A DNA stretch of 64,000 bases from Acidobacteriota bacterium (GTDB lineage: Bacteria > Acidobacteriota > Terriglobia > Terriglobales > Acidobacteriaceae). The stretch lies in contig QIBC01000002.1 of the NCBI GenBank assembly GCA_003225215.1, forward strand, positions 6,589 through 70,588, given 5' to 3'. Positions 4,653-63,427 of this stretch are shown here, in pieces (positions within the stretch are counted from its first letter, which is position 1; every line of letters starts with the position of its first letter). Position numbers and translations under genes: made by a program. The notes under the pieces were generated by a model that did not search any database, was not told the DNA's origin, and saw only the letters and a program-made list of their open reading frames with translations.

Positions 4653-4656
4653 GTAC

Positions 4657-9931: not shown

Positions 9932-10018
9932 GCCTGATGAAAGCGCATGCTGAGGTCCTCAACCCAATGAGTTCGTCGTTGTTAGACTTCTGCTGCTTCA
10001 ATGTTGGATGCGGTACAA

Positions 10019-11215: not shown

Positions 11216-11527
11216 TAGGTAAATAGGCCTCGATTCAAGTAGAGTCTGCAGCTGCCGCTCTGGTTGCCCTTCAAATCAGGGCTTCGACATCACTTGAATT
11301 TTGTTCATATGAATTCACAGGAAAGTCGGCGCCGCGAGCAACACGGCTCTTAACGAATTCATCACTACCACGGTGAGCTGCACAAGCAGAGACTCTGCTT
11401 CCGCGCAACAGAACAAGAACGCGCAATAGAACAAGAAGAGAAGAGGAAGAACAGAAACGAATCGACACGCCGGAATCGTTTCCGCCGAGTGTGTGACCGA
11501 GGATGCCGGCAAAAAAGTTAAGGAGTT

Positions 11528-12661: not shown

Positions 12662-12682
12662 GTTCGTTCTTGGAGGAATTAC

Positions 12683-14362
12683 ATGTCGGTCTCACGGAAA
12701 ATCTGGATTCTCGGCGCAGTAGTGCTGGCGGCCTCGTTTGCCATCGCAGCGGATACTCCCGCGCAGCAGCCGAGCCCGGCGAAATCACAGCAGCAAGCCG
12801 TTATTAACAGCATCTTCTACCAGGAAGCCAAGCTCGTCGAGAACATGCACAAGTACACGCCGCTGGTGGAGACCTATATCCAGAACACCAAGCCCGACGA
12901 CGAACTAGGCGAGGTGCCGACGAGCGACAAGTATTTCCTCGGCCGTCTGGTGCTCGATAAACGTGGCATTAGCGACTTGAGTTACGACAGGAAAAAAGTG
13001 GGAATGTTCTCTCGGGTATTGGACCGGCTCGATAGCTTCTACAAGATGACCTACTTGCCGGAAGGTTTCATGCAACTTGTATTCCTGAGCCACGGCTTCA
13101 ATGTCCAGAACTACGACTTGAAATATCTCCGGCAGGAATTTCTGGGCGACGTGCGCACGCTCGTCTTCGACGTTGTTCCACACAAAAAGATAAAAGGAAC
13201 GCACTTCGTAGGCCGTATCTGGGTTGAAGATCAGCAGCACAACATCGTCCGCATGAACGGCACGTATGAGCCGCAGCGCAGCGGCAACTTCTATTTCCAT
13301 TTTGATAGCTGGCGCATGAATATGCAGCCGGGATTGTGGCTGCCCGCGCTGGTTTACACCGAAGACTCCGACGTGAAATATGACCTTGTCCGCAAGATCA
13401 GCATGAAAGGGCAGACGCGCCTGTGGGGATACGACTTGAAGCATTCCGGCCGGCAGACGGAATTTACCGATCTGCAGGTGGAAGAGAACTCTCAGGATGT
13501 GACGGATAAGAGTGGCTCCAGCGCGAACGAAATGAGTCCGATCGAGAGCCGCCATAAATGGCAGCGCGAAGCCGAAGACAACGTTCTCGATCGTATGGAG
13601 CGGGCTGGCGTGTTAGCGCCCGCAGGCGAGGTCACGAAGGTCCTCGAAACCGTCGTGAATAACTTCGAAGTCACCAACAACTTGAACATTCAGCCCGAGG
13701 TTCGATGCCGAGTTCTGCTCACCACTCCGCTCGAGTCGTTCACCGTAGGAAACACCATCGTTCTCAGCCGCGGATTGCTCGACGTACTGCCGGACGAAGC
13801 CTCCCTGGCAATGATGCTTTCACACGAGTTGGCTCACATTGCGCTCGGCCATTCCGTGAATACGAAGTACGCCTTCAGCGATCGCATGATCTTCCCTGAT
13901 GAGCAGGTGCTGCAGAAGATCGGTATGAGGCGCAATGACCCCGACGAAGATGCTGCGGACAAGAAAGCCGTGGAATTGCTGCGAAACTCACCATACAAGG
14001 ACAAACTCGGCAGTGCCGGACTCTTCCTCAGGGCGCTACAGTCGCGATCGCATGAGCTGACATGGCTTATCAGTGCCAATTTCGGAAACCGCATGGCTAA
14101 GGGCAGTGACATTTTGAGAATGGAATCTCTGATTCGATCAGCTCCCGAACTCAAGACTAGCGACGTTCGACAGCTGGCTGCGCTTCCACTGGGCAGCCGA
14201 ATCAAACTCGATCCCTGGGACGATCACGTGAACCTCAAGCGAAGTAAGCCCGAGGCGGTGTTGTCTGCTCGCGACAAATTGCCTTTCGAGGTCACACCAA
14301 TGATTCCCAATCTCGTGCGTGCCGGCGAGGCAAGAGGGAACGAAGTGGCGGAAAAGCGCTGA
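12683..14362 (+). CDS. secreted M48-family zinc metallopeptidase
   Basis: Signal peptide, an HExxH motif in MMLSHELAHIALGH, and a GGAGG RBS 7 nt upstream of the ATG. Confidence 0.8.
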   Translation: MSVSRKIWILGAVVLAASFAIAADTPAQQPSPAKSQQQAVINSIFYQEAKLVENMHKYTPLVETYIQNTKPDDELGEVPTSDKYFLGRLVLDKRGISDLSYDRKKVGMFSRVLDRLDSFYKMTYLPEGFMQLVFLSHGFNVQNYDLKYLRQEFLGDVRTLVFDVVPHKKIKGTHFVGRIWVEDQQHNIVRMNGTYEPQRSGNFYFHFDSWRMNMQPGLWLPALVYTEDSDVKYDLVRKISMKGQTRLWGYDLKHSGRQTEFTDLQVEENSQDVTDKSGSSANEMSPIESRHKWQREAEDNVLDRMERAGVLAPAGEVTKVLETVVNNFEVTNNLNIQPEVRCRVLLTTPLESFTVGNTIVLSRGLLDVLPDEASLAMMLSHELAHIALGHSVNTKYAFSDRMIFPDEQVLQKIGMRRNDPDEDAADKKAVELLRNSPYKDKLGSAGLFLRALQSRSHELTWLISANFGNRMAKGSDILRMESLIRSAPELKTSDVRQLAALPLGSRIKLDPWDDHVNLKRSKPEAVLSARDKLPFEVTPMIPNLVRAGEARGNEVAEKR

Positions 14363-20413: not shown

Positions 20414-21094
20414 TCAAATAACGGCGGTAATGCTCGTTCCCGTGGCTGCGAATACGCCGGCTACCTCGAGCTCGGCAATTTCCAGGAAGCACCGCAGTAC
20501 GTGCGGATCGAACTGCGTGCCGCTGCCGGCATTGAGACGGCGAATCGCTTCCACGTGGTCGAGTCCCTTTCGGTAGCAGCGGTTGGAAATCATAGCGTCA
20601 AAGGCGTCGACGATAGATACGATGCGCGAACCCAGCGGGATCTCCTCTCCCTTCAGACCACCTGGGTATCCGGTGCCCTCGAAGGATTCGTGATGATGGA
20701 GAGCGAACAGGCTGGCCTCTTCCAGTCCGGGAAACAGCCGCAGGATCGACCAGCTGTACTCCGGATGTTTGTTCATGATGGCACGCTCTTCGTCGGTGAG
20801 CCTGCTCGGCTTCTTTAGGATTGCGTCGGGAACGCCAATCTTGCCGATGTCGTGCAGGAGAGCGGCAACTTCATACTGATACAAGTTCTCTTCTTCAATC
20901 CCCAGTCTACGCGCCACTCTTACGGCCCACTCAGCCAAACGCGTGCTGTGCACTCCGGTGTTGAGATCCTTCAAATCCAGCAGCTGATTCAATGCGCATA
21001 TAGTGGCGGTGCGCATGGTCACCTGCTGCTCTTCGAGTTCCTTGACGCGAAGAAACAGCGGTGACCAGGAATCAAATGTTTGATGCAGGCTCAT
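20414..21094 (-). CDS. HD-GYP domain protein (putative c-di-GMP phosphodiesterase), no receiver domain
   Basis: LHDIGKIGVP, HHHESFEGTGYPGGLKGEEIP and VDAFDAM. The start is uncertain, either 21094 or 21145. Confidence 0.85.
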   Translation of the reverse strand: MSLHQTFDSWSPLFLRVKELEEQQVTMRTATICALNQLLDLKDLNTGVHSTRLAEWAVRVARRLGIEEENLYQYEVAALLHDIGKIGVPDAILKKPSRLTDEERAIMNKHPEYSWSILRLFPGLEEASLFALHHHESFEGTGYPGGLKGEEIPLGSRIVSIVDAFDAMISNRCYRKGLDHVEAIRRLNAGSGTQFDPHVLRCFLEIAELEVAGVFAATGTSITAVI

Positions 21095-21114
21095 GCGCGT
21101 CGTCAAACCCTGGG

Positions 21115-22569
21115 CTACCACGAAATCCCGACCGCATACCTCCACGCCTTCACGGCCTGATAACTATCGAGCACTCCGTATCCGTACTGTGAGTACGGAA
21201 TCTGCCGTGCGTTGGAGAGAGCCTTAGCCGCCTGCTGCTTTGTGAGCAGCAGAGAATTTACGTCGGCCATTAGAGCCACCGTGCCGGAGACCAGAGGAGC
21301 GCTGAACGAAGTACCCCAACCCACTGCGTAAGTGTTGAATGGATACGTCGTCATCACAGCTTCACCAGGAGCTGACAACCACACCGGCGGTGCACCGTAG
21401 TTTGAGAACGCCGAAGGGGTGTTGTCGTTGGACGTGGAAGCCACATCGATGACGTTCGGCAGCGACGCCGGATACACCGCATTCATTTGCCCATCATTTC
21501 CAGCAGAGGCAACGCAGATAACCCCGCGCATAGTCGCGTAATTGATAGCCGTCGCGAGCTCCTGCGAGTAAGTGGTGAAATCGAAGCTCATGCTGATGAC
21601 TTTGGCTCCGTGGTTGGTCGCATAGTAAATAGCACGCAGAACGTCGGAGGCATATCCGGTTCCGTTTGCGTTGAATGCCTTCAACGGCATGATTTTTGCG
21701 TTGGGCGCTACCAGATGCACGATGCCGGCGGTCATAGTGCCGTGTCCAAATGCGGAATATTTGGAATTGTCGACCACGCCCACTGTGGATTGATCGACAA
21801 CGCCAACCGTAGATTGATTGAGCTGCGCAGGTTGTGCTGAGCCATCCACCACGCCGACTGTGGACTGGTTAATGTCTCCCAGCTCCGATCCACCGGACCG
21901 ATTGCGCGTGAAATCGTAACCATACACTAGCCGGTTCTGGAGGACGGTATTGTTCGGGTCGACGCCAGTGTCGATGATCGCAACCGTAACGCCAGTCCCA
22001 TCCACGCCGTAAGCTGATTGCGTCGTGCTGCTTCTGATGATCTGGTTCGGAGTCTGCAGAACGTATCCTTCCCAAACGGTTGCCCCGTAGTAGGACACGG
22101 GAGTTCTGTCGGTCAGGTAGTCGGGCGTGCTTCCGACGGTCGTTCCTTGCGTCGCTACCGCCTGGTCCTGTTCCACATTGGTGATGCCGGCGCCAGATAA
22201 GAGCTGAGTCAAGAAGACCACTGGGCTGAGAAGAGCGGAAGTTGTGACCACGTAGAGCTGAGCATCTGGGTCACCGATGCCCTGGAGTACCTTACAGCCA
22301 AAAAGCAAGCAGGTAAGGTTCAAACCAAGCAGGCCCTTGGTATCCCGCACGATGTAGCGGTTGGTTCCGAGCAGTCCGCCGCCACCCAGCAATCCGCCAA
22401 GCAACTGCGCGTTCGTCTTCGGAGGAGGAGGTGTAATGGCAAATCCTGGCTGTACGTACACCGCGAATAACGCCAGAGTTAAAGTTACGCTGATCCCCGC
22501 CTTCGCTCGGCTGCGCTTCTCGACAAGACTCGTCTTATTGCTAGTCATTGGATCTCCAGAGACTCTCAC
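21115..22569 (-). CDS. secreted S8 (subtilisin-like) serine peptidase with triplicated QSTVGVVD insert
   Basis: Catalytic Asp in VAIIDTGVD, His in FGHGTMTAG and Ser in GTSFSAPLVSG. It has a signal/TM segment ISVTLTLALFAVYV, and the three octapeptide repeats lie between the Asp and the His. Confidence 0.9.
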   Translation of the reverse strand: MRVSGDPMTSNKTSLVEKRSRAKAGISVTLTLALFAVYVQPGFAITPPPPKTNAQLLGGLLGGGGLLGTNRYIVRDTKGLLGLNLTCLLFGCKVLQGIGDPDAQLYVVTTSALLSPVVFLTQLLSGAGITNVEQDQAVATQGTTVGSTPDYLTDRTPVSYYGATVWEGYVLQTPNQIIRSSTTQSAYGVDGTGVTVAIIDTGVDPNNTVLQNRLVYGYDFTRNRSGGSELGDINQSTVGVVDGSAQPAQLNQSTVGVVDQSTVGVVDNSKYSAFGHGTMTAGIVHLVAPNAKIMPLKAFNANGTGYASDVLRAIYYATNHGAKVISMSFDFTTYSQELATAINYATMRGVICVASAGNDGQMNAVYPASLPNVIDVASTSNDNTPSAFSNYGAPPVWLSAPGEAVMTTYPFNTYAVGWGTSFSAPLVSGTVALMADVNSLLLTKQQAAKALSNARQIPYSQYGYGVLDSYQAVKAWRYAVGISW

Positions 22570-22660
22570 GCCTCTTAAAATTGGAAGGGGGACTACAGCG
22601 GGGGATATCCAGTCTATTCGGCGCCCAGCTCTACGGCCAGTTACGCTCGTAACCTCAAAC

Positions 22661-23305
22661 TCAATTCGGTCCTCGGCTTGCCCCGGCCGGTCGCTTGCGT
22701 TCCTCTACGCCAGTTATAGGCAGGTAAACAGGCGCTGCATCACCAACCGTGACTGAAAGGCGCAAGTTGTTCTTGAGAAGGAACTCGATCTGAAACTCGC
22801 CGTTGTTGTTACTAATGGCGCTGGCGACATTCTTGCGGCCGTCCAGAAGGATCACGGGGACTCCCGATACGGGATGGCCGGGGCGAGCGCTGTCCAGCAT
22901 CTGGCCAACTAAGGCGGCCCGCTCGGAGTTTACTTCAGAATCAACGCGCATATCTACGTAGACGGTCCCGACCCGGTATAACAATTGACGCGCGGACGCC
23001 ACAGAAGCTCTCGCGCCAACAAGAGCAGGCTGCGCCAGGCTGTCGAAGAGAAGCTCGAACGCCCGCTTCGGATGTACAGCTTCCCGTTGTTGAGCTTCGA
23101 AATGCGCCTTCGCTATGCGCACGATGCCTGCAGGAGGCTCGTAAGCTGATTCATTGGCCCCTACACGGATGACATCGCGGAACATTTCAGCAAGATCCGC
23201 GCACTCGCGGCATTCTGCGACGTGTTGTCGAACCTGACTGGCCTCGCTTGGGGGTAAGGTGTGCCGAACAAATTCAGCCAGCGATTCTTGAGGGACGTGC
23301 CGCAT
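22661..23305 (-). CDS. putative zinc-binding (ZAS, zf-HC2) anti-sigma factor without TM segment, C-terminal CarboxypepD_reg-like domain
   Basis: H-x3-C-x2-C in QHVAECRECADL. No hydrophobic helix is present. The C-terminus has VSGVPVILLDGRKNVASAISNNNGEFQIEF, a prealbumin-like pattern. Confidence 0.65.
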   Translation of the reverse strand: MRHVPQESLAEFVRHTLPPSEASQVRQHVAECRECADLAEMFRDVIRVGANESAYEPPAGIVRIAKAHFEAQQREAVHPKRAFELLFDSLAQPALVGARASVASARQLLYRVGTVYVDMRVDSEVNSERAALVGQMLDSARPGHPVSGVPVILLDGRKNVASAISNNNGEFQIEFLLKNNLRLSVTVGDAAPVYLPITGVEERKRPAGASRGPN

Positions 23306-23415
23306 TAGATCTCCCGCAGGCGCTGCGTTCTCGGGCGCCGGTTGATATCTCTTTCACAACTGAGCATAAGTGCATGCAGCCGGACCAAAAATATAGGCCA
23401 GCGGTAAAAAAATTG

Positions 23416-26292
23416 TCACGCTGAACCATTCGCGTATTTGCCCATCAAGACAAACGGAGCCCATTGATAAGGATGCGGATATCGCTCCCGCAATAGGAGC
23501 ATCGCGTCGCGCATCGCTATCGCTTTATCTTCGCCTGTCTGAAGCCGCTCGTAAAATGTGGCCATGAAATCCGCGGTGCTCTGATCGTGGACATCCCATA
23601 AGCTCAACAACAAGGATTGCGCGCCTGCCTGGAATAAACCCCGAGCCAATCCGATCAGTTCGTCTCCGGCTGCAACCACGTTCAGACCTGTGGCGCAACC
23701 ACTTAGCGTCACCAGTTCCACCGGCAAGCGCAATTGATACAGGTCGTAGAGGCTTAAATAGGAATTCCCCATTCGAATCGAAGAAAACATCGGGCTGTCT
23801 TGCCGAAAATAACCGTGCGTCGCGATGTGGATCAGCCGTGCACTTTGTGCAACAGTTTTGAGGATGTACTCGGTGGCAAATCTGCCCACGAACATCTTGG
23901 GCTGCGGCAGAATCTTGCACAAAGCACGCAATTCTCCAAGAATCGATGGAGCGTTCTGATCTGGAACTCCCATTAACAACGCGGCGCCCGATTTGTTTAC
24001 TGTGTTCTTCGTACAAACGGCGTAGATGCTAGCGCTGGGTGCATATGAGACTGTGTAGTCATCGATCAAATATCGGTCGCCGTCGAAGAGAGCGTGGAAC
24101 GGAACATAGTGCAAAGCGCCATGCGGCACAAAAAGCAAATGCTTTGCATTCATCCGGTCGCGAATAGGCGCCAGAAGTTCGTCGTAAAGCGTTTTCAAAT
24201 GCGCATTTGTAGATTGAATTAGCGAATCCCTAAATGCTGACGCATATTCAGTGCCGAGGCGGTACTTTGACAGCTGGAACTGCAGCAATCGCAATGCGTT
24301 GCTGATTCGTGATGCCAGTGTGACTGGAAGGATTTGCAGGCGTTCTCGGCCAAGGAGGCAAGCTAGGATGCGATCTCCGGTCTGGAAGTACTCGACGATG
24401 AGCGTGTCGGGAGTGATCGCCGCGCGTACTTCGTCGATCGATACATTCTTGCTCGCCTGCATTTCCGGATTGTTGACGCCGGAAAGATTTGATTCTTGTA
24501 GGACACGAATCAGATCCGTTTCGCGCGCCCGTACCTGCTCCTCCAGCCGCTTTATGTGCCCCGGAGAACGATGCTCCGGGCGAAGCTGCTCGAGTTCGAT
24601 CAAGCTGTAATACCAATTCAACTCGTCGCGCAGACTGCGCATCCGGCGAACCAGATCGCTTTGACCGCTCTCGTCCGTGCTTGAGTACACCGGTTGCAGC
24701 ATCTGATCCATTAACGTGCGTGACTTGGCCTCTTCGATATATCCGAACGCCTCCTCCAGCGAATTCCTGCCGTAGTGGCCGGAGAGGCATGAGTCCACGA
24801 GCAACTCATAAACTTCAAGACGATTTTTGAGAAATGCTAACTTGAGTTCCTGGCCCCGCAGATTGCTGCGCAACATCTCCAGGGACTCGCGGGAGCTGCG
24901 AAAGCATTCGTACGCATCTTGCTTGTTTCCAGAATGGGAATGCATTTGCCCCATCAGCAGATACGCCTGGTGACGCAACATGGGAGCCTGCATGTCTTTC
25001 AACTTCTCGATCGCAATGCTGCATTCCTTATGTGCGGTTGCAAGATCACTGGTGCGCTGAGCAATGCGTGCGAGCAAGAGCCGGCAGAGCACGGCCTTTC
25101 CTGGCAGCAAGGAAGAATCGAAGAATGTGAGAGCAGCCTTTGCCAGCCTGCGAGCCTCGAAGTGCCGGCCCTCGTTGAACAACACCAGAGCCTGGTATAG
25201 ATCGATCAGCGATGGCCAGACCTGGTTCTTCTCCTTGACGAACATTTCCCGAGCGCGAGCAAAGAGTTTTAAACTCTGAAACGCCTGACCCTGCTGGCCC
25301 ATGGCAATGGCTTCAAAGGCGAGGCATTTGGCGGATTCATAACCCATCTGTAAAGCTTCAAATTCAGCAAAACCAAGACGGGCAAGCTCGGCTGCTTCCG
25401 CTCCCAGATTCAGCTCCAGGTAAAGTTCCGAGAGATCAAGATTGCAGAGACCAGAGTGATAGCGATCGTCAATTTTGTTGCAGCGCAGCCGCGTGGAGCG
25501 CAGCATGTCGATCGCCTGGCTGTACTCGCCGCGCAAAAAATAGAGATAAGCAATGTTGTAGTCCGCCTGCGCAACCAGCAGTGGCATGCCGTGTTTCTCG
25601 CAATACTCGCGGGCGTGCTGATGGGTCTCAAGTGCTTCTTGAAATTGGCCCAGACTGATCAGGCAAATGGAGAGATTGCTAAGCGCAGCAGCGATTCCTT
25701 CGCTATTTCCATGTTTGATCACACCATCGTAGGCACGGCGGTAGCATGCCAGCGCGTCTGCGAAGCGGTCCTGACGGTAAAACACATTCCCGATGTTGAT
25801 CTCGAGACGCGACAGCCGTAGCTCGTCGCCCAGCTGGGTGAAGATCGCGCGCGCGCTCTCAGCAGCCGAGAATGCGGCGTCATAATCTCCGCACAAGTTC
25901 AACGAAAGGATGCTGGCGCTCAGGGTCCTTCCAATCTCTTCTATGTTCCCGACCGCCTCAAATAACCGAGTTGCTTCTTTGTGCAGTTCGACGGCGAAAG
26001 AGTATTGCCCGAGCGCGTGCAGAGCATTGGCTTTGATGCGAGTGGCATGCGCCGTTCCGAGTTGATCTCCCAGGACTCCAGCGATCTCGATCGCCAGCTC
26101 GCCAAGGTTAAGAGACCGGCGCGCGTCTACACGCAGAGATTCTCGTGCTTGATTCGCCAGATCGACGATATTGTCCAGGCTTAGCTGATCCTTGCGGGCG
26201 GCGATAAACTCCCGTCTCGCGTTCAGATCAGAGATCACTTCGAGTTCCTGAAGAAAAGACTTCGTCGCGTCGATTGGAGCGGTCGCGCTCAT
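23416..26292 (-). CDS. TPR-repeat CHAT-domain (caspase-like) protease
   Basis: There are about 600 aa of TPR-like helical repeats. The C-terminal CHAT motifs are LIHIATHGYF (His) and LVTLSGCATG (Cys). The start was chosen at MSATAPID (ATG 26290..26292), an ATGA overlap with the sigma gene stop. Confidence 0.9.
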   Translation of the reverse strand: MSATAPIDATKSFLQELEVISDLNARREFIAARKDQLSLDNIVDLANQARESLRVDARRSLNLGELAIEIAGVLGDQLGTAHATRIKANALHALGQYSFAVELHKEATRLFEAVGNIEEIGRTLSASILSLNLCGDYDAAFSAAESARAIFTQLGDELRLSRLEINIGNVFYRQDRFADALACYRRAYDGVIKHGNSEGIAAALSNLSICLISLGQFQEALETHQHAREYCEKHGMPLLVAQADYNIAYLYFLRGEYSQAIDMLRSTRLRCNKIDDRYHSGLCNLDLSELYLELNLGAEAAELARLGFAEFEALQMGYESAKCLAFEAIAMGQQGQAFQSLKLFARAREMFVKEKNQVWPSLIDLYQALVLFNEGRHFEARRLAKAALTFFDSSLLPGKAVLCRLLLARIAQRTSDLATAHKECSIAIEKLKDMQAPMLRHQAYLLMGQMHSHSGNKQDAYECFRSSRESLEMLRSNLRGQELKLAFLKNRLEVYELLVDSCLSGHYGRNSLEEAFGYIEEAKSRTLMDQMLQPVYSSTDESGQSDLVRRMRSLRDELNWYYSLIELEQLRPEHRSPGHIKRLEEQVRARETDLIRVLQESNLSGVNNPEMQASKNVSIDEVRAAITPDTLIVEYFQTGDRILACLLGRERLQILPVTLASRISNALRLLQFQLSKYRLGTEYASAFRDSLIQSTNAHLKTLYDELLAPIRDRMNAKHLLFVPHGALHYVPFHALFDGDRYLIDDYTVSYAPSASIYAVCTKNTVNKSGAALLMGVPDQNAPSILGELRALCKILPQPKMFVGRFATEYILKTVAQSARLIHIATHGYFRQDSPMFSSIRMGNSYLSLYDLYQLRLPVELVTLSGCATGLNVVAAGDELIGLARGLFQAGAQSLLLSLWDVHDQSTADFMATFYERLQTGEDKAIAMRDAMLLLRERYPHPYQWAPFVLMGKYANGSA

Positions 26293-26873
26293 TTCCACCC
26301 TCTCGACAGGAGTTGCTTCTTCAGGCGATCTAAGCAACGCCCGCGTATGAATCCGATGGATCCGGTTGCGAGCCCGAGTTTCCGCGCGATCTGCTCGTAT
26401 GGGAGTGCTGGAACTTCGAAGAAGAGCATGCGGATTATCTCCGCGCAGCGGCCAGCTACAGCCGCAAGCGCATCTCGCAACATCTGCTCTCGCTCTGCTT
26501 CTTCCACGAGTGTGCCAGCAGTGACATTCGTCAATGCGAGGTCTTCCGAGATCTCCTGGTCCGAAATGCGGCTCTGTTGTTGGCGCCACCTGGCGCACTT
26601 GTGCACAGCCGTCTGAATGAGCCACTTTGGTAGTGCTCTTGGCTCGCGCAACCGGGACAATTCCGAGTAAAGATCCACGCAGACCGACTGAAAAATATCG
26701 TTCGCGTCCTCGCGAGGCAGCTCCCACTTCACCGGGATCGAGTAGATCAGCTTCTTGTATTTTTCAATTAACGCGGACCAGGCTTCTTGCTTGCCGTGAA
26801 GGCATTCCTGTACGAGGCGCTCGTCGGACCAGGTGGCCGTAGTCTCCTTGGCGAGTTTGGCGGTAGCGATCAC
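26289..26873 (-). CDS. ECF-type RNA polymerase sigma-70 family factor
   Basis: Region 2 (LIEKYKKLIYSIPVKW...DANDIFQSVCVDLY) and region 4 HTH (LPYEQIARKLGLATGSIGFIRGRCLDRLK). The GTG start overlaps the SBP stop (GTGA). Confidence 0.88.
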   Translation of the reverse strand: MIATAKLAKETTATWSDERLVQECLHGKQEAWSALIEKYKKLIYSIPVKWELPREDANDIFQSVCVDLYSELSRLREPRALPKWLIQTAVHKCARWRQQQSRISDQEISEDLALTNVTAGTLVEEAEREQMLRDALAAVAGRCAEIIRMLFFEVPALPYEQIARKLGLATGSIGFIRGRCLDRLKKQLLSRGWK

Positions 26874-28648
26874 TTTGCCGTGGCGACCCCTTGCTGACGG
26901 AGATAAAGTTCATCTGCATTCCAGAGAACGTACGGTTCGAGTGGCGCCGGACGAAAGTTTGCGACTTGCTTGGTCGCGCCGACCAGCACATTGGGGCTGG
27001 CCAAGAAAATGAATGGCAAATTATTCGCGATGAGGGCCTGAGCTTCGTCATAGATGCGCTTGCGCTTCTTATATTCCAGCGTGACTAATTGCCGATTCAG
27101 GAGCGCGTCAAGTTCCGCTTCCCATGGTGTCGCCGGCTTGGTCTCATGCATGTTCCAGAGATGGGTACTGCCATTCGACATCCAAACGTTCATGTCGCCA
27201 TTTGGGTCCGCATCGCCACCTCCGAGACCAAGGACGCACGCGTCGTAATCGTTCGATTGGAAGACACGATCCATCACGGCGCGAAACTCGAGTGGCACTA
27301 CGTGCACACTCATTCCGAGTTGAGCCAGATCATCTGCGATCAGCGTGGCCATCTTCACGCGTTGCGCATTCGAAGAACTGGTAATGATGGTAAACTCGAC
27401 GGGCTTTCTTTCGAGGTCCAGAAGTTTTCCCTTCTCGTCCCATGAGAATCCCGCGGATCTCAAGAGATCTTTCGCCTGCGGAATAGAGCGTTCAGGATGG
27501 GGAAGCTCTCGGTTGATCCACAATTTGTTTCCTGGAGTTACGTTTCCCCAAATTGGTACCCCACGACCCCCAAAGGCTAATTTCACGATGCTCCGGCGAT
27601 CGATAGCGAGCGAGATGGCTTGGCGAAACCGCAGGTCACGAAACCATGGCTGTTCTCGAGAAATCTGCTGAAACTTGTCGGGTGGTAACTCGTTCAGATT
27701 AAAAAACAGGAAGTTGTATTCAAGACTAGGGCCGAGATCAACCAGATCATATCCACGATTTTGCTGTTCGCGGGCCATTGCCGGATAGTTATCTGGGCTG
27801 AAGCGACTGATTACGCTAGTCTCGCCCGATTGAAATCGCAAGATCTGTGCATCTTCGTTGCCGACGAAGAGAAACGCAATCTCGTCGAGATAGGGCAAAC
27901 GATGGCCGTCGCGATCTGCCTTCCAGTAAAACGGATTTCGCTCTAGGACTAGTCTTTGACCCGGTAGGTACTGTTTCAACCGAAACGGTCCCAATCCCGC
28001 AATGGTATCGGGAGCAGTGTTGAGAGTCAGCGCCTGAGCGAACGATCCCTGTTCGTAACTCTTGAGAAGGAGATGCTGGGGAAGTATCGCCACGCTATCG
28101 AAAATCCGCTCAGCCGCAGCGTAGGGCTGAGACATGTCAAAGCGAACTGTGTGATCGTCGATCTTGACCGCAGAGATCGGCTTGCCGCCGATAGTTAGAA
28201 GATCGCGATTCGGCGAATGGACTTTTTCATCAAGGTACACGCGAAAGCTAAAGACAACGTCATCTGCGCTGAAGGGATAGCCGTCCGAAAAACGTACTCC
28301 CTGACGAAGCTTGACGGTGAAGCTGCGTCCATCCGTCGACAACTTCCACGAGCTGGCTAGTGCGGGCTCAGTCTGTTGCGTTACACGATTGATGTGGACG
28401 AGGTCAGCCATCATTCGGCCGATCACTTCGCGGGATGGACCGTCTGTGGCCGTAACCGGGTTCAGTGTTTTTGGCTCAGCGCGCTGTCCAACCACAAGCG
28501 TGCCGCCATATCGACCTACTTCGGCCGAGCTGACCTGAAGCTCTTCCCCTCTTTGAATCCGTTCGGGCGCTGGGGCAGAGGACGCGTAGCTGTCGATACC
28601 AGATATTGCCCTGAAGGCAAGGAGCGAAAAGATTGCAAGCTTACGCAT
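26870..28648 (-). CDS. ABC transporter substrate-binding protein, family 5 (peptide/nickel type)
   Basis: Signal peptide MRKLAIFSLLAF, GGTLVVGQRAEPKTLNP, and the size and pattern of DppA/OppA-like SBPs. Confidence 0.9.
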   Translation of the reverse strand: MRKLAIFSLLAFRAISGIDSYASSAPAPERIQRGEELQVSSAEVGRYGGTLVVGQRAEPKTLNPVTATDGPSREVIGRMMADLVHINRVTQQTEPALASSWKLSTDGRSFTVKLRQGVRFSDGYPFSADDVVFSFRVYLDEKVHSPNRDLLTIGGKPISAVKIDDHTVRFDMSQPYAAAERIFDSVAILPQHLLLKSYEQGSFAQALTLNTAPDTIAGLGPFRLKQYLPGQRLVLERNPFYWKADRDGHRLPYLDEIAFLFVGNEDAQILRFQSGETSVISRFSPDNYPAMAREQQNRGYDLVDLGPSLEYNFLFFNLNELPPDKFQQISREQPWFRDLRFRQAISLAIDRRSIVKLAFGGRGVPIWGNVTPGNKLWINRELPHPERSIPQAKDLLRSAGFSWDEKGKLLDLERKPVEFTIITSSSNAQRVKMATLIADDLAQLGMSVHVVPLEFRAVMDRVFQSNDYDACVLGLGGGDADPNGDMNVWMSNGSTHLWNMHETKPATPWEAELDALLNRQLVTLEYKKRKRIYDEAQALIANNLPFIFLASPNVLVGATKQVANFRPAPLEPYVLWNADELYLRQQGVATAK

Positions 28649-29660
28649 AGCTCTGTCCTGAGTTGATCCTGGCACCAGCTTGGTGCAACGCATCGGCGAG
28701 AACGAAGTACGTAAGTGAAACCGCGACTAGAGCCACAAGCGGGGCCGCCATCCACCAATAGGAGCTCACAGTCTGGAACTGCTGAAAGGCCGACAGCATG
28801 TTTCCCCAACTGGGTACCGGCTCACCGATGCCGAGTCCAAGGAAAGAGAGCGTAGCTTCTGCTGCCACGAACTGTGGAATCAGAGTCACCGCCTGCGCGG
28901 TAATAACCCCTAGTGTCTGAGGAAGCACATGCCGTCGCAAGAGATACCATTCCGATGCTCCGAATCCGCGAGCTGCGGAAACGAATGGCCTCTCTCTCGC
29001 GCTGAGCACTACGCCGCGAATGAGACGCGCCGGGCGGGCCCATCCCATCGCGCCGATGACGGCAGACAAAAGAATCAGGGTTCTTGTCGGCTCCACGTGT
29101 AACGGGAGAGACCCGCGGATTGCGAGCAACAAGTAAATCCATGGCAACGCCAGAACGAGTTCTGAGCTGCGCATGATTACTGCATCGACAGCGCCGCCGA
29201 AGTGTCCTGCGATCCCTCCAGCCGCAACGCCAATCAGCAGCGACAGTAGGGTTGCCACCATCGCGGCTAATAGGGAGATTCGTCCGCCAAATAAGAGACG
29301 AGAGAAAATGTCACGCCCGTAGCCATCCGTTCCGAAAAGGAACAGATCGGCCTGACTATCCACAGCCAGCAAATGTATCCCATCGGATTTGCGACTCAGG
29401 AAGCGAATCGGATATCCCGAACTGGGATCCTCGCGATATTGAAACCCTTCGCCTTCAACAGGAACTGAAGGGTAAACAAACGGACGAATGTGTACCTGAC
29501 CTTGCGCATCCACAAAATGCAGTTTGGTCGGTCGGGCGTAAGCGTGTTCTCTGTGTTGCGCAGACGGCATATACGGTGCAAAGAAACCAGCGAACAGAAT
29601 TCCGCAATGCACTGCCGCGAAAGCCATCGCAATGGCGAATATCTTTCGGTGCATCAGCAT
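28641..29660 (-). CDS. ABC transporter permease (DppC/OppC-like)
   Basis: Six TM segments and an EAA-like loop VSAARGFGASEWYLLRRHVLP. Confidence 0.9.
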   Translation of the reverse strand: MLMHRKIFAIAMAFAAVHCGILFAGFFAPYMPSAQHREHAYARPTKLHFVDAQGQVHIRPFVYPSVPVEGEGFQYREDPSSGYPIRFLSRKSDGIHLLAVDSQADLFLFGTDGYGRDIFSRLLFGGRISLLAAMVATLLSLLIGVAAGGIAGHFGGAVDAVIMRSSELVLALPWIYLLLAIRGSLPLHVEPTRTLILLSAVIGAMGWARPARLIRGVVLSARERPFVSAARGFGASEWYLLRRHVLPQTLGVITAQAVTLIPQFVAAEATLSFLGLGIGEPVPSWGNMLSAFQQFQTVSSYWWMAAPLVALVAVSLTYFVLADALHQAGARINSGQSYA

Positions 29661-30622
29661 TCGGCCCTCACGCGCGGATCGACGGCGTACAGAAGCACAT
29701 CGCTGATAAGATTCGCTATTACCAGAAGAACGGAGAACAGCATAACGACTGCCATCACCACATGAAGATCGCGAGCGAAGATCGCGTTAATAAAGAGCGG
29801 TCCTAATCCTGGCCATCCCATAATGACTTCAATCAGGAATGATCCACTCACCAATCCCGCCAAAGAGAGGCCGAAAAGAGAGATCAGCGGATTTGCTGCC
29901 GCTGGTAAAGCGTGGTGCAGGAGCAGACGTCGATTCCCGATTCCATGTCCCTTCGCTGCCTTGACGAAGGGTGAGTTCCAAGCTTCCAGCATCGCTGCCC
30001 GGACGTGACGGAGGAGCATAGGAGCCGCGACCAAGGCCAGTACTGTGGCCGGGATTGCGAGATGGCGAATCACGTCAGCAACCGCAAAGCCAGTTTGTTC
30101 GGAATACAATGAGGTCATTCCACCAGTAGGCAATACCCCGAAGCGGGCCGCAGCGAGCATGAACAACATTCCCAACGCCAGTTCCGGAGAGCTGAGGAGC
30201 AGCGTTGATATTGCCGAATTGCCACGATCGATCCAACCTTTGGGACGGAATGCTCCCCAAATTCCTAGAGGTAACGCCAGCGACCAGGCGATTAGCATGG
30301 CTGTCGTTCCGAGCAGGAAAGTGTTTCGCATTCTGGTCCACAACAGCGCGCTGACGGGCATGTTGTACGCGAGTGAATACCCAAACTCACCGGCAAACGC
30401 CGACGCGATCCATCGAAGATATCGGACGGGTAGCGGCTGATCGAGCCCGTATTGCACCCTCAAGGAGTCAACAGTCTGTGCAGAGATCTGCGGATTCAGG
30501 CGCATCTCGTCGAGGAATGTGCCCGGAGCGAGTTGCGCAATACCAAATGTAAGAACCGAAATTGCAGCAAGCAGAAGTACGGCGTGCAGGAAGCGACGTT
30601 TGAGATAATCGAGGATTCTCAT
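29654..30622 (-). CDS. ABC transporter permease (DppB/OppB-like)
   Basis: MRILDYLKRRFL N-terminus and FVKAAKGHGIGNRRLLLHHALP EAA loop. Confidence 0.9.
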   Translation of the reverse strand: MRILDYLKRRFLHAVLLLAAISVLTFGIAQLAPGTFLDEMRLNPQISAQTVDSLRVQYGLDQPLPVRYLRWIASAFAGEFGYSLAYNMPVSALLWTRMRNTFLLGTTAMLIAWSLALPLGIWGAFRPKGWIDRGNSAISTLLLSSPELALGMLFMLAAARFGVLPTGGMTSLYSEQTGFAVADVIRHLAIPATVLALVAAPMLLRHVRAAMLEAWNSPFVKAAKGHGIGNRRLLLHHALPAAANPLISLFGLSLAGLVSGSFLIEVIMGWPGLGPLFINAIFARDLHVVMAVVMLFSVLLVIANLISDVLLYAVDPRVRAEC

Positions 30623-32250
30623 TCCGCCTCCGCGGGTGCGAAGGCATGCTTGCTTTGAGCATGCAGCAAGTGCTCCGCTCGCCCGATGTTCGAGGTATAT
30701 CCGATCTCAGCGCGGTTGTGCTGCTCGACGATCCTGCCGTCTTGCATTACCAGGATTCGGTCGGCGACCTTGGAGACAAGCTCGAGATCATGAGAGATGA
30801 GTAGCTGCGTGATCCCCAACCTGTGTCTGAGATTCACGAGCAGATCAAGCATCTCGTCTCGCGTTTGAGAGTCAAGACCAGAGAGAGATTCGTCGAAAAT
30901 CAAAAGGCTCGGCTCGAGTGCCAATGCCCGTGCGATTACTAATCGTTGTTTTTGTCCTCCACTGAATTCGTGACACGACCTCTCCGCGGTCGAAGGGTCG
31001 AGCCCGGTTTGTTGCATCAACAGTTCGGCCGCTCTCCTCCTATCTTTTCGACTGGCCCCGTTCCGGACTACGAGTGGCTCCGATATAGCTTCAGTCGCCG
31101 AAAGTCGCGGATTGAGGGCCGCTGCGGGATCCTGGGAAACGTATTGCAGGCGACTGCGAAATGCACGCAGCTGCTGAGATGGCAAGCCAAGAAGGTTAGT
31201 ACCCTCGAAAAGAATCTCGCCTGCATCAGCCTCCTCAAGCAACGCGATGCAACGCGCCAGCGTTGACTTTCCCGAACCAGAGGGTCCGACTAGCGCGGTC
31301 AGCGAGCCCCTCGTGATGCTCAGGTCGATTGAGTGCAGTGCCTGTTTTTCTGCATTCTTTTTTCGAAACAGTCCGCGCGGCTTATAGCACTTGCTCAGGT
31401 TACGAACTGAGATGAGCGTAGTTCTCGAGTCAGGTGCGAGGCCCAATTTTGTACCGGAGGAGATGCACATACCCGACGAGAGATTGCCGCGATCATTGGT
31501 GGAAGGCAAGTTGAGGGTCCTATCTGCGAGCCTGCCCGTGACCGTGTGATCGTGACTGATTAGTAGGAACGCTGCTCCGGTCTCCCGTCGAAGGCGGTCA
31601 ATCAAGTCGAGAACTTCATTTTTCAGCCTAGCGTCGAGACCCGCTGTCGGTTCATCGGCGATGACCAGCGCAGGCCTACATATCAACGCTTGCGCAAGAA
31701 CGATGCGATGAGTCTCCCCCCCACTCAACTCGTGTGGATACGCCTGGTAATAGCGCTCAGTCCCTAATTGGACTTGATTCAACATCAGTCGGGCCTGCTG
31801 CCGGCACTCTTCCGAATTCAGTGCACTGTGAGCCCGCAGAACCTCCGCGATCTGATCTCCAACGCGCATTACTGGATTCAAGGCAAGTGCAGGTTCCTGG
31901 TAGATAATGGAAACTTCGCGGCCACGTATCTCGGAGAGCTGAGTCTCTTTGAGCTTCAACAGATCGTTTCCGCGAAAGAGAGCTTCGCCCCGCACAGCCG
32001 CTCCACGGGGAAGGAGTCCTAGCACAGCCAGTGCAATCGACGTCTTCCCGCTACCCGATCGGCCCTCCAGCCCCAGCACCTCCCCGGTTCGGACCTCGAA
32101 GCTCAGAGCCTCCACGGCGACACGAGTGCTGTCCCGCGTCGCATAAGACACAGTAAGGTCGCGTACCTCAAGCAAGGTGCGGATTGGCGAAGAAACGGGC
32201 AAGAGAGACACTCCGTCCGTGGGCGCAGCCAGGGCGCTTATGCCGGGCAA
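30619..32250 (-). CDS. fused double ABC ATPase (DppD/DppF-like)
   Basis: Two Walker A motifs (GRSGSGKTS, GPSGSGKST), two signature motifs (LSGGETHR, FSGGQKQR) and two Walker B motifs (VIADEPT, LIFDES). Confidence 0.92.
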   Translation of the reverse strand: MPGISALAAPTDGVSLLPVSSPIRTLLEVRDLTVSYATRDSTRVAVEALSFEVRTGEVLGLEGRSGSGKTSIALAVLGLLPRGAAVRGEALFRGNDLLKLKETQLSEIRGREVSIIYQEPALALNPVMRVGDQIAEVLRAHSALNSEECRQQARLMLNQVQLGTERYYQAYPHELSGGETHRIVLAQALICRPALVIADEPTAGLDARLKNEVLDLIDRLRRETGAAFLLISHDHTVTGRLADRTLNLPSTNDRGNLSSGMCISSGTKLGLAPDSRTTLISVRNLSKCYKPRGLFRKKNAEKQALHSIDLSITRGSLTALVGPSGSGKSTLARCIALLEEADAGEILFEGTNLLGLPSQQLRAFRSRLQYVSQDPAAALNPRLSATEAISEPLVVRNGASRKDRRRAAELLMQQTGLDPSTAERSCHEFSGGQKQRLVIARALALEPSLLIFDESLSGLDSQTRDEMLDLLVNLRHRLGITQLLISHDLELVSKVADRILVMQDGRIVEQHNRAEIGYTSNIGRAEHLLHAQSKHAFAPAEAE

Positions 32251-32669
32251 CGTAAGTATTTCGAATGCGGGAAGTCATAGCTCTATCCAACTCAAGGAGG
32301 ATAGTCACTTTCGTAACTATTCGGGCCGCCGGATTGCAGCCGGGCGAGCTAGGCAAAGGAAACAGCAGTTGACGTGCTGATGTTATACAGTCGATCCCAT
32401 TGAAGCCAATATCCCACGCCCGCGTCTCTACCGGGGAGAAAAGACTCTGCTGAATGCGCCTCAGTCGTTTCCGCAGACAGTTTGTAAAGCTCATCGTCTG
32501 AGTTCTGAGGTGATCGCAATCGAACACTTCCGACGTAGTTCGGGCGGCTGATTCTCCCTTGTTGCTGAGCCAGGCCTCGGGAATAAAGGACTTGTATAGA
32601 CATTCGACTGGAGAGAAGATTGCTCGGGCCCTAATAGAAATCCCTTCCTATTTACTGGAGAGATCGAAC

Positions 32670-34564: not shown

Positions 34565-37371
34565 ATGAGAACGACATTCCCAACCTACATCGCGATCGCA
34601 ATTCTTCTCTTTTCCACCTTAGCCATCGCGCAGACCCCAGATACCGCGATCATTGTTGGACAAGTCTTCGATTTAACGCACTCTGTCGTTATCGGTGTTC
34701 GCATAACAGCTACCAATGATGCCACTGGGCTAAAACGAAGTGCGGAGACTGATAGCAAGGGCAAGTTTTTTCTTGCCGCCCTGCCAGTCGCGGGCAGCTA
34801 CACGCTTACTGCTAGCAAGGCTGGGTTCGCTGACGCGCGAGTCGAGAACCTGAACCTCGCGGGTGGGCGCTCAGCCGAGATGAGTCTGCAACTCAATCCT
34901 TCTGCGGGATCGACCGTTATCGAAGTGACAGGAGTCGTCGGTGAGGTTCTAACCGATGAGCCTCAGCTGGGAGAACGCATCGACAGTAAGCAGGCTCAAG
35001 AGACACCTCTCCTGAATCGTCGCATCACGTACCTGCCTTTGCTGAACTCGGCCAATCGTCCGGCGCTCAATCAGGGCGACGTTTTCATGAACGAGAACTT
35101 GTTTACTACAAATGGTTCCGGCAGGAGGCAAACCTCCTTCGAGGTGGACGGCAGTACCGGCAATGACAGTTGGGGCAGGCAAACAGTCTTTACAAATCTC
35201 CCGTTGTCGAGCGTGCAGGAGATGACTGTTCTCGAAAACGCATTCTCCGCAGAGTATGGCGCAACCACGGGCGGGGTGGTGAATATCGTTACCAAGAGTG
35301 GAAGCAACGCCCTGCATGGCGAAATTCTTGGAGCATTTCGCCCTTCGGATACGCAAGCCAAACTCTCCGGATTCACTGCAGCAAATGCTCCCAATGGCAA
35401 TGCCATCACTGACGATTCATTGAAGCAGACTTCAGCTTCGTTCGGTGGCCCGATCGGCTCAAGCGGACGCACCCACTTTTTTGTTTCGGGCGAATACACA
35501 TGGCAAAATCGCACCTCACCGGTCACATCGCCAGTTTCGCCTGGGCCATTCGAAGGGCATTATCGCGGCTGGTTGGCTTTCGCGCGCCTCGATCACACGA
35601 TCAACAATCGCCACAGCCTGTTCTTCCGCAGCAACGTTGACAATTTCCACGACACCAATCCGAATGGAGCGGTTGGTGGCAACAGTCTGCCCACCGTTGA
35701 CCGCATCTTCAAACGTCGAACCTACTCGGAAGAACTAGGCGAGACCGCGGTATTGAAACCCGCACTTATCAATAGCGCGCGTTTGCAATTTCAGTTGGGA
35801 TCGCCCATTACCGAGTTCGATCCCGCGGTCTTCAGCACGCAGTACACAGTTCCCATTAAGGGCGTGGGAAGCTTTGTGAGTGGGACATCGCAGGCAGCGG
35901 AACTGCAGAATCGTCAATACGAGTTCAGCGATACGCTCTCCGCTTCAATAGGTCGGCACGAACTGCGATTTGGAGCAGATGTGATTCATGCCCATAACGG
36001 TGGTAATGGTAAAGAATTTGGGGGACCCAGTTTTCTAGGAGCCTTCACTTACAAGACCTGAACCTTGGATTACGGTACGAGCAACAGACATTTACTGACG
36101 CTCGAAAGGACTTTGCACCCCGTGTTGGATTCGCCTACAACCTCGGAGGTAAAGGGCGAACGGCAATTCGCGGTGGATTCGGAATTTACTATTCCCAGCT
36201 CATTAACAACGCGCAAGCGAACTACGCACTCTCGGGACCAACCGGCTTCTTTAACTTCACCGCTGGGCCAGGACAGATAGGGTTTCCGAGCAGCGTATCC
36301 GCAGCTCCGTTGCCGACGTTTCCGCCCGGCGCGCGTATGCCGGTTCGTAACTTTTATCTCCGCCCTGGGCGGGCTTCGTTTTACAACCAGTTCTTTCCGG
36401 TATCGGCACTCGTAGGATATCCGGACGCACTCCTTAATCCCTATTCGGAACAATGGACCTTTGGAGTTCAACATCAGCTCGCGCCAAACTGGCTGCTGTC
36501 GATAGACTATCTGGGTTCGCACACGCTAAAGATTGTTCGCCCGCTGGATGTCGATTCGCCTGCATCAGTCGTGCGGGCGATCACGAGCTCGGGCATGCAG
36601 TCCGTGCGCACTGCACAGGCGGCCAACTGCGCGCGTCCGCTGTGGATCGCTTTCTACAATCTCGGTACTCCGTGCAACGCAACGCAGGCCACCAATCCCC
36701 AGCCGGCGTATGCTCAGATCCTCAGTGACGTGAATAACGGCTACGCCTTTTACCACGCTCTAAACGTCAACCTGAATCATCGCTTTACCAATCGTTTCCT
36801 GATGCTGGCCAGCTATACGCGGTCGCATTCGACTGATAACGTCGATCCGGATGTTCCCGGACAGAATCCGAATGATCCGAACATCACGGGTGCGGCGGAG
36901 TATGGCAATGCCATCTTTGATCAACGCCATCGATTTGTGCTCAGCGGATATTATGTGGGGCCGCTGAAAATCACAGTTGGCGGTGTGTCTACCATTGCCT
37001 CGGGATTGCCATATAACCTGACAACCGGCGCCAACAATTTTGGCGATCCGGGAGCGACGGCGGATCGCCCGTTAATCAATGGAGTGATTGTCGGCAGAAA
37101 TACGGGCCGGGGAAGGGCGATCTACGATGTGTCTCCAATGATTGAACGCCCGTTTGCGCTTGGCTCTGAGCGTGTCCAGCTCACAGTGCGCGCGGAAGCA
37201 TTCAACGTCTTTAATCACGCCAATTTCGTCGGGTTCAATGGAGCATTCGGAAACGGAACCACTTTACCGCTGGGACCGGGTGGTCAAAGCGTGATTGGGC
37301 AGCCATTAGTCGGAATCACAAATCAGTTACCGGCGCGTTCGCTGCAATTCCAGGCAAGGCTCAATTTCTAG
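34565..37371 (+). pseudogene. TonB-dependent receptor with N-terminal CarboxypepD_reg domain, interrupted by a frameshift near 36040-36060
   Basis: The first ORF (34565-36061) has a signal peptide, a CarboxypepD_reg domain (IVGQVFD...SKGKFFLAALPVAGSYTL) and a plug. The reading continues one frame back from about 36046 as LNLGLRYEQQTFTDARKDFAPRVGFAYNL... through to the terminal ...LQFQARLNF. Confidence 0.75.
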
Positions 37372-63418: not shown

Positions 63419-63427
63419 TCGTCCGGG

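Follow-up and report, generated by a model that had tools for sequence, protein, structure and literature searches.

The nearest working analogue of the locus reported here is the type III-E CRISPR (clustered regularly interspaced short palindromic repeats) system, in which Csx29, a protease composed of tetratricopeptide repeats (TPR) and a CHAT domain, cleaves the C-terminal part of Csx30 and so relieves the inhibition of CASP-sigma, a sigma factor resembling those of the extracytoplasmic function (ECF) type (PMC10028731). Csx30 is a soluble inhibitor of two domains, and its N-terminal part binds CASP-sigma (PMC10028731). CHAT-mediated anti-sigma proteolysis was also proposed for DdvA, a single transmembrane protein whose CHAT domain is periplasmic (PMC11506125). 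We analyzed 64,000 nucleotides (nt) of contig QIBC01000002.1 of an Acidobacteriota bacterium, a stretch referred to below as the window, and found there nine genes arranged one after another on the minus strand from position 32250 to position 20414. They encode an oligopeptide-type ATP-binding cassette (ABC) importer, an ECF-type sigma factor, a TPR-CHAT protease, an anti-sigma-like protein with a zf-HC2 domain, a secreted S8 protease and an HD-GYP protein (Table 1). The cluster is best explained as a vertically inherited signalling module whose centre is the ECF sigma factor together with a soluble anti-sigma factor that has a zinc motif and resembles ChrR, and the nine genes very probably work as one functional module.

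The likeness to the type III-E system (craspase) lies in the gene for a cytoplasmic TPR-CHAT protein beside those for a sigma factor of ECF-like type and a soluble inhibitor with two domains, and the CHAT domains are distantly homologous. However, the Csx29 model NF041237 reached 53.7 bits (cutoff 300) and matched the CHAT domain only, and the match to Csx29 in the PDB had an E value of about 1e-4. No Cas7-11 or crRNA (CRISPR RNA) was found here, a tandem-repeat and CRISPR scan detected no CRISPR-like array in the 64-kb window, and the conserved neighbours are the ABC, S8 and HD-GYP genes. The inhibitor consists of a zf-HC2 domain and a beta-sandwich and is not Csx30, the presumed activator is not a target RNA, and the module is tied to the importer, the S8 protease and the HD-GYP protein and inherited vertically in Acidobacteriota. 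The DdvS/DdvA pair of Myxococcus xanthus shares with the locus an ECF sigma factor, an N-terminal domain with a CHCC/HCC zinc motif and a TPR-CHAT module, and the N-terminus of the anti-sigma-like protein matched that of DdvA weakly (E = 0.07). In contrast to DdvA, CHAT and anti-sigma are here separate soluble cytoplasmic proteins whose genes are 110 nt apart; DdvA controls an island of CRISPR and the cyclic-oligonucleotide-based anti-phage signalling system (CBASS) and has a narrow distribution.

ChrR/RpoE of Rhodobacter sphaeroides and RsrA/SigR offer a soluble anti-sigma factor with H/C-x-HxxxCxxC in a four-helix domain, followed in ChrR by a C-terminal beta-rich sensor domain; soluble anti-sigma factors with a zinc motif are not unusual, and RsrA is another of them. 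The C-terminal domain of the present protein is an immunoglobulin (Ig)/transthyretin-like sandwich and not a cupin as in ChrR, and the locus differs from both systems in having a CHAT gene as the conserved neighbour and the anti-sigma gene in a unit separate from sigma. Regulated intramembrane proteolysis (RIP), as in RseA/DegS/RseP and RsiW, has in common with the proposed circuit that a protease triggered by a signal destroys the anti-sigma factor and the ECF sigma factor is freed, but the anti-sigma factor here has no membrane helix, no genes for site-1 or site-2 proteases occur in the cluster, and all products except the S8 protease and the binding protein are predicted to be cytoplasmic. 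A possible likeness to the RRNPP systems of Firmicutes (Rap/Phr, NprR, PlcR/PapR, PrgX) would consist of a processed secreted peptide, Opp import and a cytoplasmic TPR receptor. The phylum is a different one, however, the output is CHAT instead of a helix-turn-helix domain or a phosphatase, and the putative peptide lies inside the S8 protease itself, with no small precursor gene in the spacers of the cluster. A preliminary description of the locus had proposed a cytoplasmic, CHAT-dependent inactivation of the anti-sigma factor linked to imported peptides, as a design different from the usual RIP or partner-switching ECF pathways. This proposal is supported in part. The design is less novel than was claimed, in view of the ChrR fold match and the DdvA proposal and because craspase already frees an ECF-like sigma factor by TPR-CHAT cleavage. 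Literature searches gave no paper linking CHAT with ECF sigma factors in Acidobacteria, and CHAT is not mentioned in the main text of the ECF reclassification paper.

Relatives of the sigma factor numbered 7097 at E <= 1e-5. When a single genome of each species was scanned with the sigma alignment, at least 550 encoded relatives were confirmed, and the neighbourhoods were studied in the best 80 loci. All of these come from metagenome-assembled genomes, nearly all labelled Acidobacteriota (Terriglobales, Acidiferrales, Solibacteraceae and Bryobacteraceae), and tblastn with the window proteins found gene order and strand alike almost everywhere. Counting only loci with enough flanking DNA, the CHAT gene was the downstream neighbour of sigma in 74 of 75 loci and, further downstream, the zf-HC2 gene was present in 69 of 70 and the S8 gene in 66 of 68. 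The preliminary description had tied its proposal to conservation of the sigma-CHAT pair, and the pair is indeed conserved, with the zf-HC2 protein as its partner. Upstream of sigma, the binding-protein gene was present in 69 of 76 loci, permease 1 in 64 of 68 and permease 2 in 68 of 72; the ATPases, fused in the window, are two separate genes in most related loci. The HD-GYP gene was found in 48 of 61. The sole exception to the sigma-CHAT adjacency among the 75 loci (L050, 10052-10597) was a sigma paralogue 55% identical and with the same cysteines, near which no CHAT, anti-sigma, S8 or P1 (the promoter-like motif described below) was found.

The gene junctions were conserved as well. Those between the binding-protein and sigma genes and between the sigma and CHAT genes had a median of -4 nt, with an overlap or at most 30 nt in 64 of 66 loci, and the spacer between the CHAT and anti-sigma genes had a median of 133 nt and was never shorter than 59 nt. 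In the window itself the overlaps reported earlier (ATGA, 7 nt, 8 nt, GTGA and ATGA, from the ATPase gene to the CHAT gene) and the 110-nt gap before the zf-HC2 gene were all confirmed. The idea of one unit from the ABC genes to CHAT is borne out by these tight overlaps (64/66 loci), but the anti-sigma/S8 part has promoter-like motifs of its own.

In the closest genome relatives (L002, L004, L005 and L006; sigma about 70% identical) the binding-protein gene is precisely lost, and the permeases and ATPases remain directly upstream of sigma. Three of 72 loci (L015, L046 and L056) are without ABC genes and keep sigma, CHAT, anti-sigma and S8; no clear shared promoter was found upstream of sigma in these three. 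Because of the loci without ABC genes or without the binding-protein gene, we take sigma, CHAT, anti-sigma and S8 as the core, which the importer accompanies very frequently and the HD-GYP protein frequently. Across orders of Acidobacteriota the genes remain colinear, and their divergence follows that of sigma, which argues for vertical inheritance and against an island.

The sigma factor scored 67 bits with TIGR02937 (cutoff 43), had Sigma70_r2 and Sigma70_r4 as its sole Pfam domains, and reached the cutoff of none of the specific NCBIfam sigma subfamilies. Its profile matched AlgU, RpoE, SigW and SigH in the PDB, and the AlphaFold model, with a predicted local distance difference test score (pLDDT) of 81, showed eight helices in two bundles joined by a disordered linker at residues 106-116. 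Cysteines C24, C65, C93, C143 and C180 were shared by all or nearly all orthologues (75-77 of 77). These five are spread over both sigma domains, which is unusual for an ECF sigma factor, and suggest metal or redox chemistry.

The anti-sigma-like protein matched zf-HC2 with 27.5 bits (cutoff 22.2). As stated earlier it has no membrane helix: the maximum Kyte-Doolittle mean over 19 residues had a median of 1.05 over 67 orthologues, and no hydrophobic segment was found in any of them. The prealbumin-like domain that had been described at its C-terminus was visible as a beta-sandwich in the AlphaFold model, but the Pfam match stayed below the threshold (21.8 against 32.3 bits); the sub-threshold Pfam family at this part was CarboxypepD_reg. 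In the model (pLDDT 76), residues 6-75 form four helices, which are followed by a short strand, a loop of low confidence at 95-102 and the beta-sandwich at 104-196, and the top fold match, a weak one, was ChrR bound to its sigma factor. Residues H3, H28, C32 and C35 form a ChrR-type HHCC pattern and were at least 95% conserved in 67 orthologues, and G97 and R99 are invariant within the flexible loop. The most conserved stretch of the protein is 'LLFDS..P..G.R....ARQ.LY' and not the presumed sigma-binding domain, and the Gly-x-Arg loop is retained even in paralogues without the zinc-motif domain. The family comprised 2779 representative clusters at 50% identity, nearly all of 200-240 amino acids (aa).

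The TPR superhelix of the CHAT protein covers about residues 60-690 and the CHAT domain residues 698-952. Its catalytic His (HIATHG) and Cys (LSGCATG) were at least 95% conserved in 66 CHAT orthologues; these motifs and HVAECREC of the zf-HC2 protein, all noted in the preliminary description, were found in the translations and are conserved at this level in 66-67 orthologues. The N-terminus was without signal peptide by inspection, and the protease is predicted to be cytoplasmic. The TPR-region profile resembles peptide-binding TPR proteins, with matches to LGN/Pins, kinesin light chain (KLC) and AfsR and weaker ones to RapF and RapJ; the likeness to RapF/RapJ is generic (E about 1e-5).

Three metagenomic loci without a sigma gene help to assign the domains. 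In L081 (6973-12164), L083 (147-5223) and L084, the CHAT gene (60% identical to the window CHAT at the protein level in L081) is followed by a 170-aa anti-sigma homologue without the zinc-motif helical domain and then by S8, and sigma, ABC genes, HD-GYP and P1 were all absent. These triads adjoin very large Ig-repeat surface proteins of the ASH/Cep192/HYDIN type. Because the variant loci keep the triad without sigma, the beta-sandwich protein would belong functionally with CHAT and S8. The best indirect evidence on the division of labour is that the zinc-motif domain comes and goes with sigma, which argues that the helical domain is the sigma-binding part, and that the beta-sandwich protein is kept beside CHAT, which argues that CHAT deals with the beta-sandwich part. 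From the co-loss of the zinc-motif domain, sigma and P1, binding of sigma is thus a candidate role for the N-terminal domain.

P1 is a conserved bipartite motif specific to this family, with the consensus CCTATATTT-N16-CCCTTAT, that always lies between the CHAT and anti-sigma genes. The spacers of 63 loci could be aligned and showed an A/T tract, cCCTATATTTTt, a fixed spacer and CCCTTaT. In a scan with a position weight matrix (PWM), P1 scored about 37 bits and was the sole match in the window; over the 80 loci (1.4 Mb) there were 74 matches, 66 of them at the CHAT/anti-sigma spot, once per locus, and the best PWM score in the sigma-less L081, L083 and L084 was at most 2.5. The exact pattern occurred 122 times in metagenome contigs, 55 times upstream of an anti-sigma gene. 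About half of the 122 matches were on low-GC contigs or had no recurrent downstream gene, and were discarded as chance matches of a 16-base pattern.

P1 was also found in front of other operons. In a sister clade, 12 high-GC contigs carried it before the gene of a 145-aa secreted protein with the ATPase genes directly after (L143, L093, L097, L109, L117, L122, L128, L135, L142, L159, L161 and L170). In L143 (oriented, 3227-13419), the sole sister-clade locus that was long enough, the ATPases, permeases, binding protein, sigma, CHAT and anti-sigma follow, and a second P1 variant precedes the anti-sigma gene. The conserved 145-aa protein, which heads the ABC-sigma-CHAT operon of this clade, has two cysteines and no Pfam family and was absent from the window and from L001-L080. 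In six other loci (L132, L181, L184, L086, L145 and L136) P1 preceded a secreted, Ser/Ala-rich protein of about 300 aa with a weak TrbI-like match, which is likely a further regulon member. Single cases were a HisKA_3 kinase whose N-terminus carries the anti-sigma motif 'MFDS...GAR...ARQ' (L189, oriented, about 5300-6270), a paralogue without zinc motif upstream of an NtrC-type regulator (L022, near 2882 on the minus strand), and a receiver-domain protein (L129).

ECF target promoters are usually recognised by a bipartite, non-palindromic motif of fixed spacing at several operons including that of the sigma factor. Because P1 precedes several operons, among them the sigma-encoding one in the sister clade, we assign it to the cluster sigma and infer that it is the candidate promoter of this sigma factor; its place before the sister-clade sigma operon would be, at the level of sequence, a signature of ECF autoregulation. 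A sigma-70 promoter was rejected, as the only consensus match in 13 kb (GTGACA-18-TATATT) overlaps P1 and its -35 element is not conserved in orthologues. The preliminary description had suggested a search for an ECF-type promoter upstream of the ABC, S8 and anti-sigma genes. A strong candidate, P1, was found before the anti-sigma gene, but not before the ABC genes or S8 of the window, and a PWM scan gave no P1 upstream of either in the clade of the window. A 'CTATCG box' upstream of the ABC genes was considered as a degenerate P1 and dismissed (loose regular expression in 4 of 41 regions, p = 0.21).

The ABC operon and S8 of the window are instead preceded by a dyad, P2. The pattern GTTAC-N4-GTRAC has two sites in 64 kb against 0.05 expected, one upstream of each, with TATGACT or TAGACT about 23 nt downstream of either site. 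Clade-specific forms (ATTAC-N4-GTAAG and GTAC-N4-GTAC) occurred at both places in other loci, and TTAC-N4-GTAA followed after about 23 nt by TAGACT was kept in the anti-sigma/S8 spacers of related loci. We consider an ECF promoter less likely for P2, which is palindromic and has its half-site 23 nt from the -10-like TAGACT and not 16-18 nt. This geometry points to a dimeric activator centred near -41.5 and suggests a putative class II activator site, the regulator of which is possibly CRP/FNR-like.

Taken as a whole, it is quite conceivable, though tentative, that the CHAT protease, as a dedicated activator, inactivates the anti-sigma factor in the cytoplasm upon a signal and thereby frees the sigma factor for P1, much as Csx29 frees CASP-sigma by cutting Csx30. 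In the resting state the four-helix domain of the anti-sigma factor would hold sigma. Binding of a signal by the TPR superhelix would cause CHAT to cut the anti-sigma factor, most plausibly at the Gly-x-Arg loop, and the remnant would be degraded and sigma released. Free sigma would then act at P1 to express the anti-sigma factor (a negative feedback), S8 and HD-GYP, and in some lineages also sigma itself, the importer and CHAT. The co-translated importer would most likely supply the signal as a ligand, plausibly an extracellular oligopeptide generated by S8, and the output of exoprotease and the level of cyclic diguanylate (c-di-GMP) would thereby be coupled to the extracellular peptide supply.

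Several points weigh against this model. The ABC genes are absent from 3 of 72 loci and the binding-protein gene from four. The ABC operon of the window is preceded by the dyad and not by P1, so that another regulator is involved, and a split -35/-10 scan of 41 regions upstream of ABC genes gave no enrichment over 2000 control segments (p = 0.21). ECF promoters typically carry an 'AAC' signature in the -35 element, which P1 does not have. As the triad persists without sigma, the primary partner of CHAT may be the beta-sandwich domain, for some other purpose, and the conserved HHCC motif could make the anti-sigma factor a redox sensor that is independent of a protease. The substrate of the importer is not readable from its sequence, and both the cleavage of the anti-sigma factor by CHAT and the link to imported peptides are steps that we infer.

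The HHCC motif leads to the first alternative, in which an anti-sigma factor of the ChrR/RsrA type would release sigma on oxidation of its HHCC site, the five cysteines of sigma may contribute, and CHAT, importer and S8 would be merely co-regulated output or neighbours. The at least 95% conservation of H3, H28, C32 and C35, the best fold match to ChrR and the sigma cysteines kept in 75-77 of 77 orthologues are all consistent with such a switch. It leaves unexplained, however, why the sigma gene is set between the binding-protein and CHAT genes with overlaps on either side (64/66 loci) and why the Gly-x-Arg beta-sandwich stays beside CHAT after the zinc motif and sigma are lost; many zinc-motif anti-sigma factors are, moreover, not redox sensors. 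We regard a redox or zinc switch as unlikely.

A second possibility is a refinement of the CHAT-cleavage model and starts from the S8 protease with its conserved catalytic D, H and S motifs. The window protein carries an insert between the catalytic Asp and His, which reads NQSTVGVVD, nine residues and QSTVGVVD-QSTVGVVD. Perfect tandems of Q-x6-D octapeptides occurred in 47 of 59 S8 orthologues, in 16 lineage-specific variants (e.g. QSTVAVLD, QHTAAMLD, QRTVAVLD, QETTPILD and QSTTSILD), and all copies within one protein share one variant and change in concert. Between the two copies, 1-8 of 24 DNA positions differ (usually 4-5), always synonymously, so that selection holds identity at the level of the peptide. 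Identity kept over so long a time is to be expected of equivalent units that a single partner recognises, such as excised peptides. The copy number is 2-4 in related loci and nine in L081 (10587-12164; one QSTAGVVD and eight QSSAGVID). The repeats would accordingly be conceived as an autoinducer that is excised, imported and bound by the TPR of CHAT, whereupon the anti-sigma factor would be destroyed and sigma would raise S8 and HD-GYP in a quorum- or efficiency-sensing loop. The concerted variants with only synonymous DNA differences, a copy number of 2 to 9 that fits an exposed cassette, the position of S8 downstream of P1 and the presence in one cluster of all RRNPP-like parts (export signal, protease, Opp-type importer and TPR receptor) agree with it. 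On the other hand, the repeats persist in the ABC-less L015 and L046 and the sigma-less L081, where import by this transporter would not be their purpose unless they act in trans, and they could be a structural or autoinhibitory insert. We consider the autoinducer loop quite unlikely.

The importer could also be part of a plain nutrient operon, in which importer and S8 scavenge peptides, sigma regulates S8 in the ordinary way, and neither CHAT nor the zf-HC2 protein has a related role. Its set of components is complete (SBP_bac_5, two BPD_transp_1 permeases and two ABC_tran domains) and of the Opp/Dpp/Nik type, although the binding protein matched Opp4A, NikA and DppA with 134, 124 and 117 bits, all far below the cutoffs. 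Genes of an Opp-type transporter beside that of an exoprotease, and the P2 dyad shared by the ABC operon and S8, which suggests joint control by a classical transcription factor, fit this explanation. The strict conservation and overlap of the sigma and CHAT genes, the dedicated P1 and its joint loss with sigma and the zinc-motif domain speak instead for an integrated regulatory device, and the nutrient operon is very improbable. A function in anti-phage defence, with CHAT as abortive-infection effector or sensor and sigma turning on defence genes, is suggested by the occurrence in CRISPR and CBASS islands of CHAT proteases and of ECF sigma factors paired with anti-sigma factors (PMC10028731, PMC11506125) and by weak PADLOC matches to BovA (28 bits) and a subtilase model, but is extremely improbable for a colinear, vertically inherited cluster that is linked to a nutrient-type importer and has housekeeping flanks (cytochrome oxidase, rhodanese) of uniform base composition, no CRISPR array in the window, no significant PADLOC defence-family membership and only 54 bits against a cutoff of 300 with the Csx29 model.

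All genes were found where the preliminary description had placed them, but some of the starts given there are doubtful (Table 1). The ATPase may start at TTG 32250 or GTG 32211, and the starts of S8 and HD-GYP are probably internal; ATG 22548, with a GGAGA Shine-Dalgarno sequence, is likelier for S8, and 21094 for HD-GYP. With the HD-GYP gene (to 20414) and the upstream dyad (to 32317) the cluster extends beyond the limits first reported. The HD-GYP translation contains HHE...GYP, 'LLHDIGK' and 'HHHESFEGTGYPGG', and the protein is a predicted c-di-GMP phosphodiesterase.

Table 1. Coordinates of the cluster genes and associated sequence elements in the window.
Feature	Position	Strand	Basis and remarks
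P2 dyad GTTACGAAAGTGAC upstream of ABC operon	32304..32317	-	Pattern scan; -10-like TATGACT at 32279-32273
Fused OppD/OppF-type ATPase, two ABC_tran domains	30619..32250	-	Pfam, NCBIfam
ABC permease 1, BPD_transp_1 and N-terminal domain	29654..30622	-	Pfam; ATGA overlap with ATPase gene
ABC permease 2, BPD_transp_1	28641..29660	-	Pfam; 7-nt overlap with permease 1
Family-5 binding protein, SBP_bac_5, signal peptide, start MRKLAIF	26870..28648	-	Pfam E = 3e-83; 8-nt overlap with permease 2
ECF-type sigma factor, 194 aa	26289..26873	-	TIGR02937; GTGA overlap with binding-protein gene
TPR-CHAT protease, 958 aa	23416..26292	-	Pfam CHAT E = 2e-64; ATGA overlap with sigma
Promoter-like motif P1, GCCTATATTTTT-N13-GCACTTATG, A/T tract upstream	23365..23398	-	PWM, conservation
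zf-HC2 anti-sigma-like protein, 214 aa	22661..23305	-	Pfam, AlphaFold model
P2 dyad, second copy, GTTACGAGCGTAAC, upstream of S8	22640..22653	-	Pattern scan; -10-like TAGACT at 22616-22611
Secreted subtilase, Peptidase_S8, signal peptide	21115..22569	-	Pfam E = 7e-36
Three QSTVGVVD octapeptides inside S8, two in tandem	21769..21867	-	Translation, orthologue comparison
Stand-alone HD-GYP protein, HD_5	20414..21145	-	Pfam E = 1e-41

The cluster is flanked by cytochrome oxidase, rhodanese and outer-membrane protein genes, and base composition is uniform across the window. Two adjacent open reading frames on the plus strand (34565-36061, which also has a CarboxypepD_reg domain, and 36310-37371) match successive parts of one OMP_b-brl_4 profile and may be an outer-membrane protein of the TonB-dependent type split by a frameshift, as a pseudogene or by a sequencing error. 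Short tandem repeats unrelated to the cluster were found at 11402-11437 and 63374-63422, with periods of 18 and 20 and 2-2.5 copies.

The input is unresolved for many groups of ECF sigma factors. The logic of anti-sigma destruction by a TPR-CHAT protease has so far been documented only inside type III-E CRISPR loci, and the module, if the proposed chain is true, adds a cytoplasmic caspase-like destroyer of an anti-sigma factor in ordinary physiology. Its reach would be wide, with at least 550 sigma relatives in species-representative genomes and the 2779 anti-sigma clusters. The P1 motif, the candidate cleavage loop and the candidate octapeptide ligands provide handles on the circuit. Should the octapeptides be autoinducers, this would mean RRNPP-like logic outside Firmicutes in which the receptor is a protease, and a relative of craspase that is independent of CRISPR. 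Acidobacteriota rank with the most abundant bacteria of soil and are poorly understood experimentally. In these bacteria a secreted protease, an importer of the oligopeptide type and the turnover of c-di-GMP appear to be under the control of the circuit, with a bearing on how proteins and peptides are turned over in soil and on lifestyle switching.

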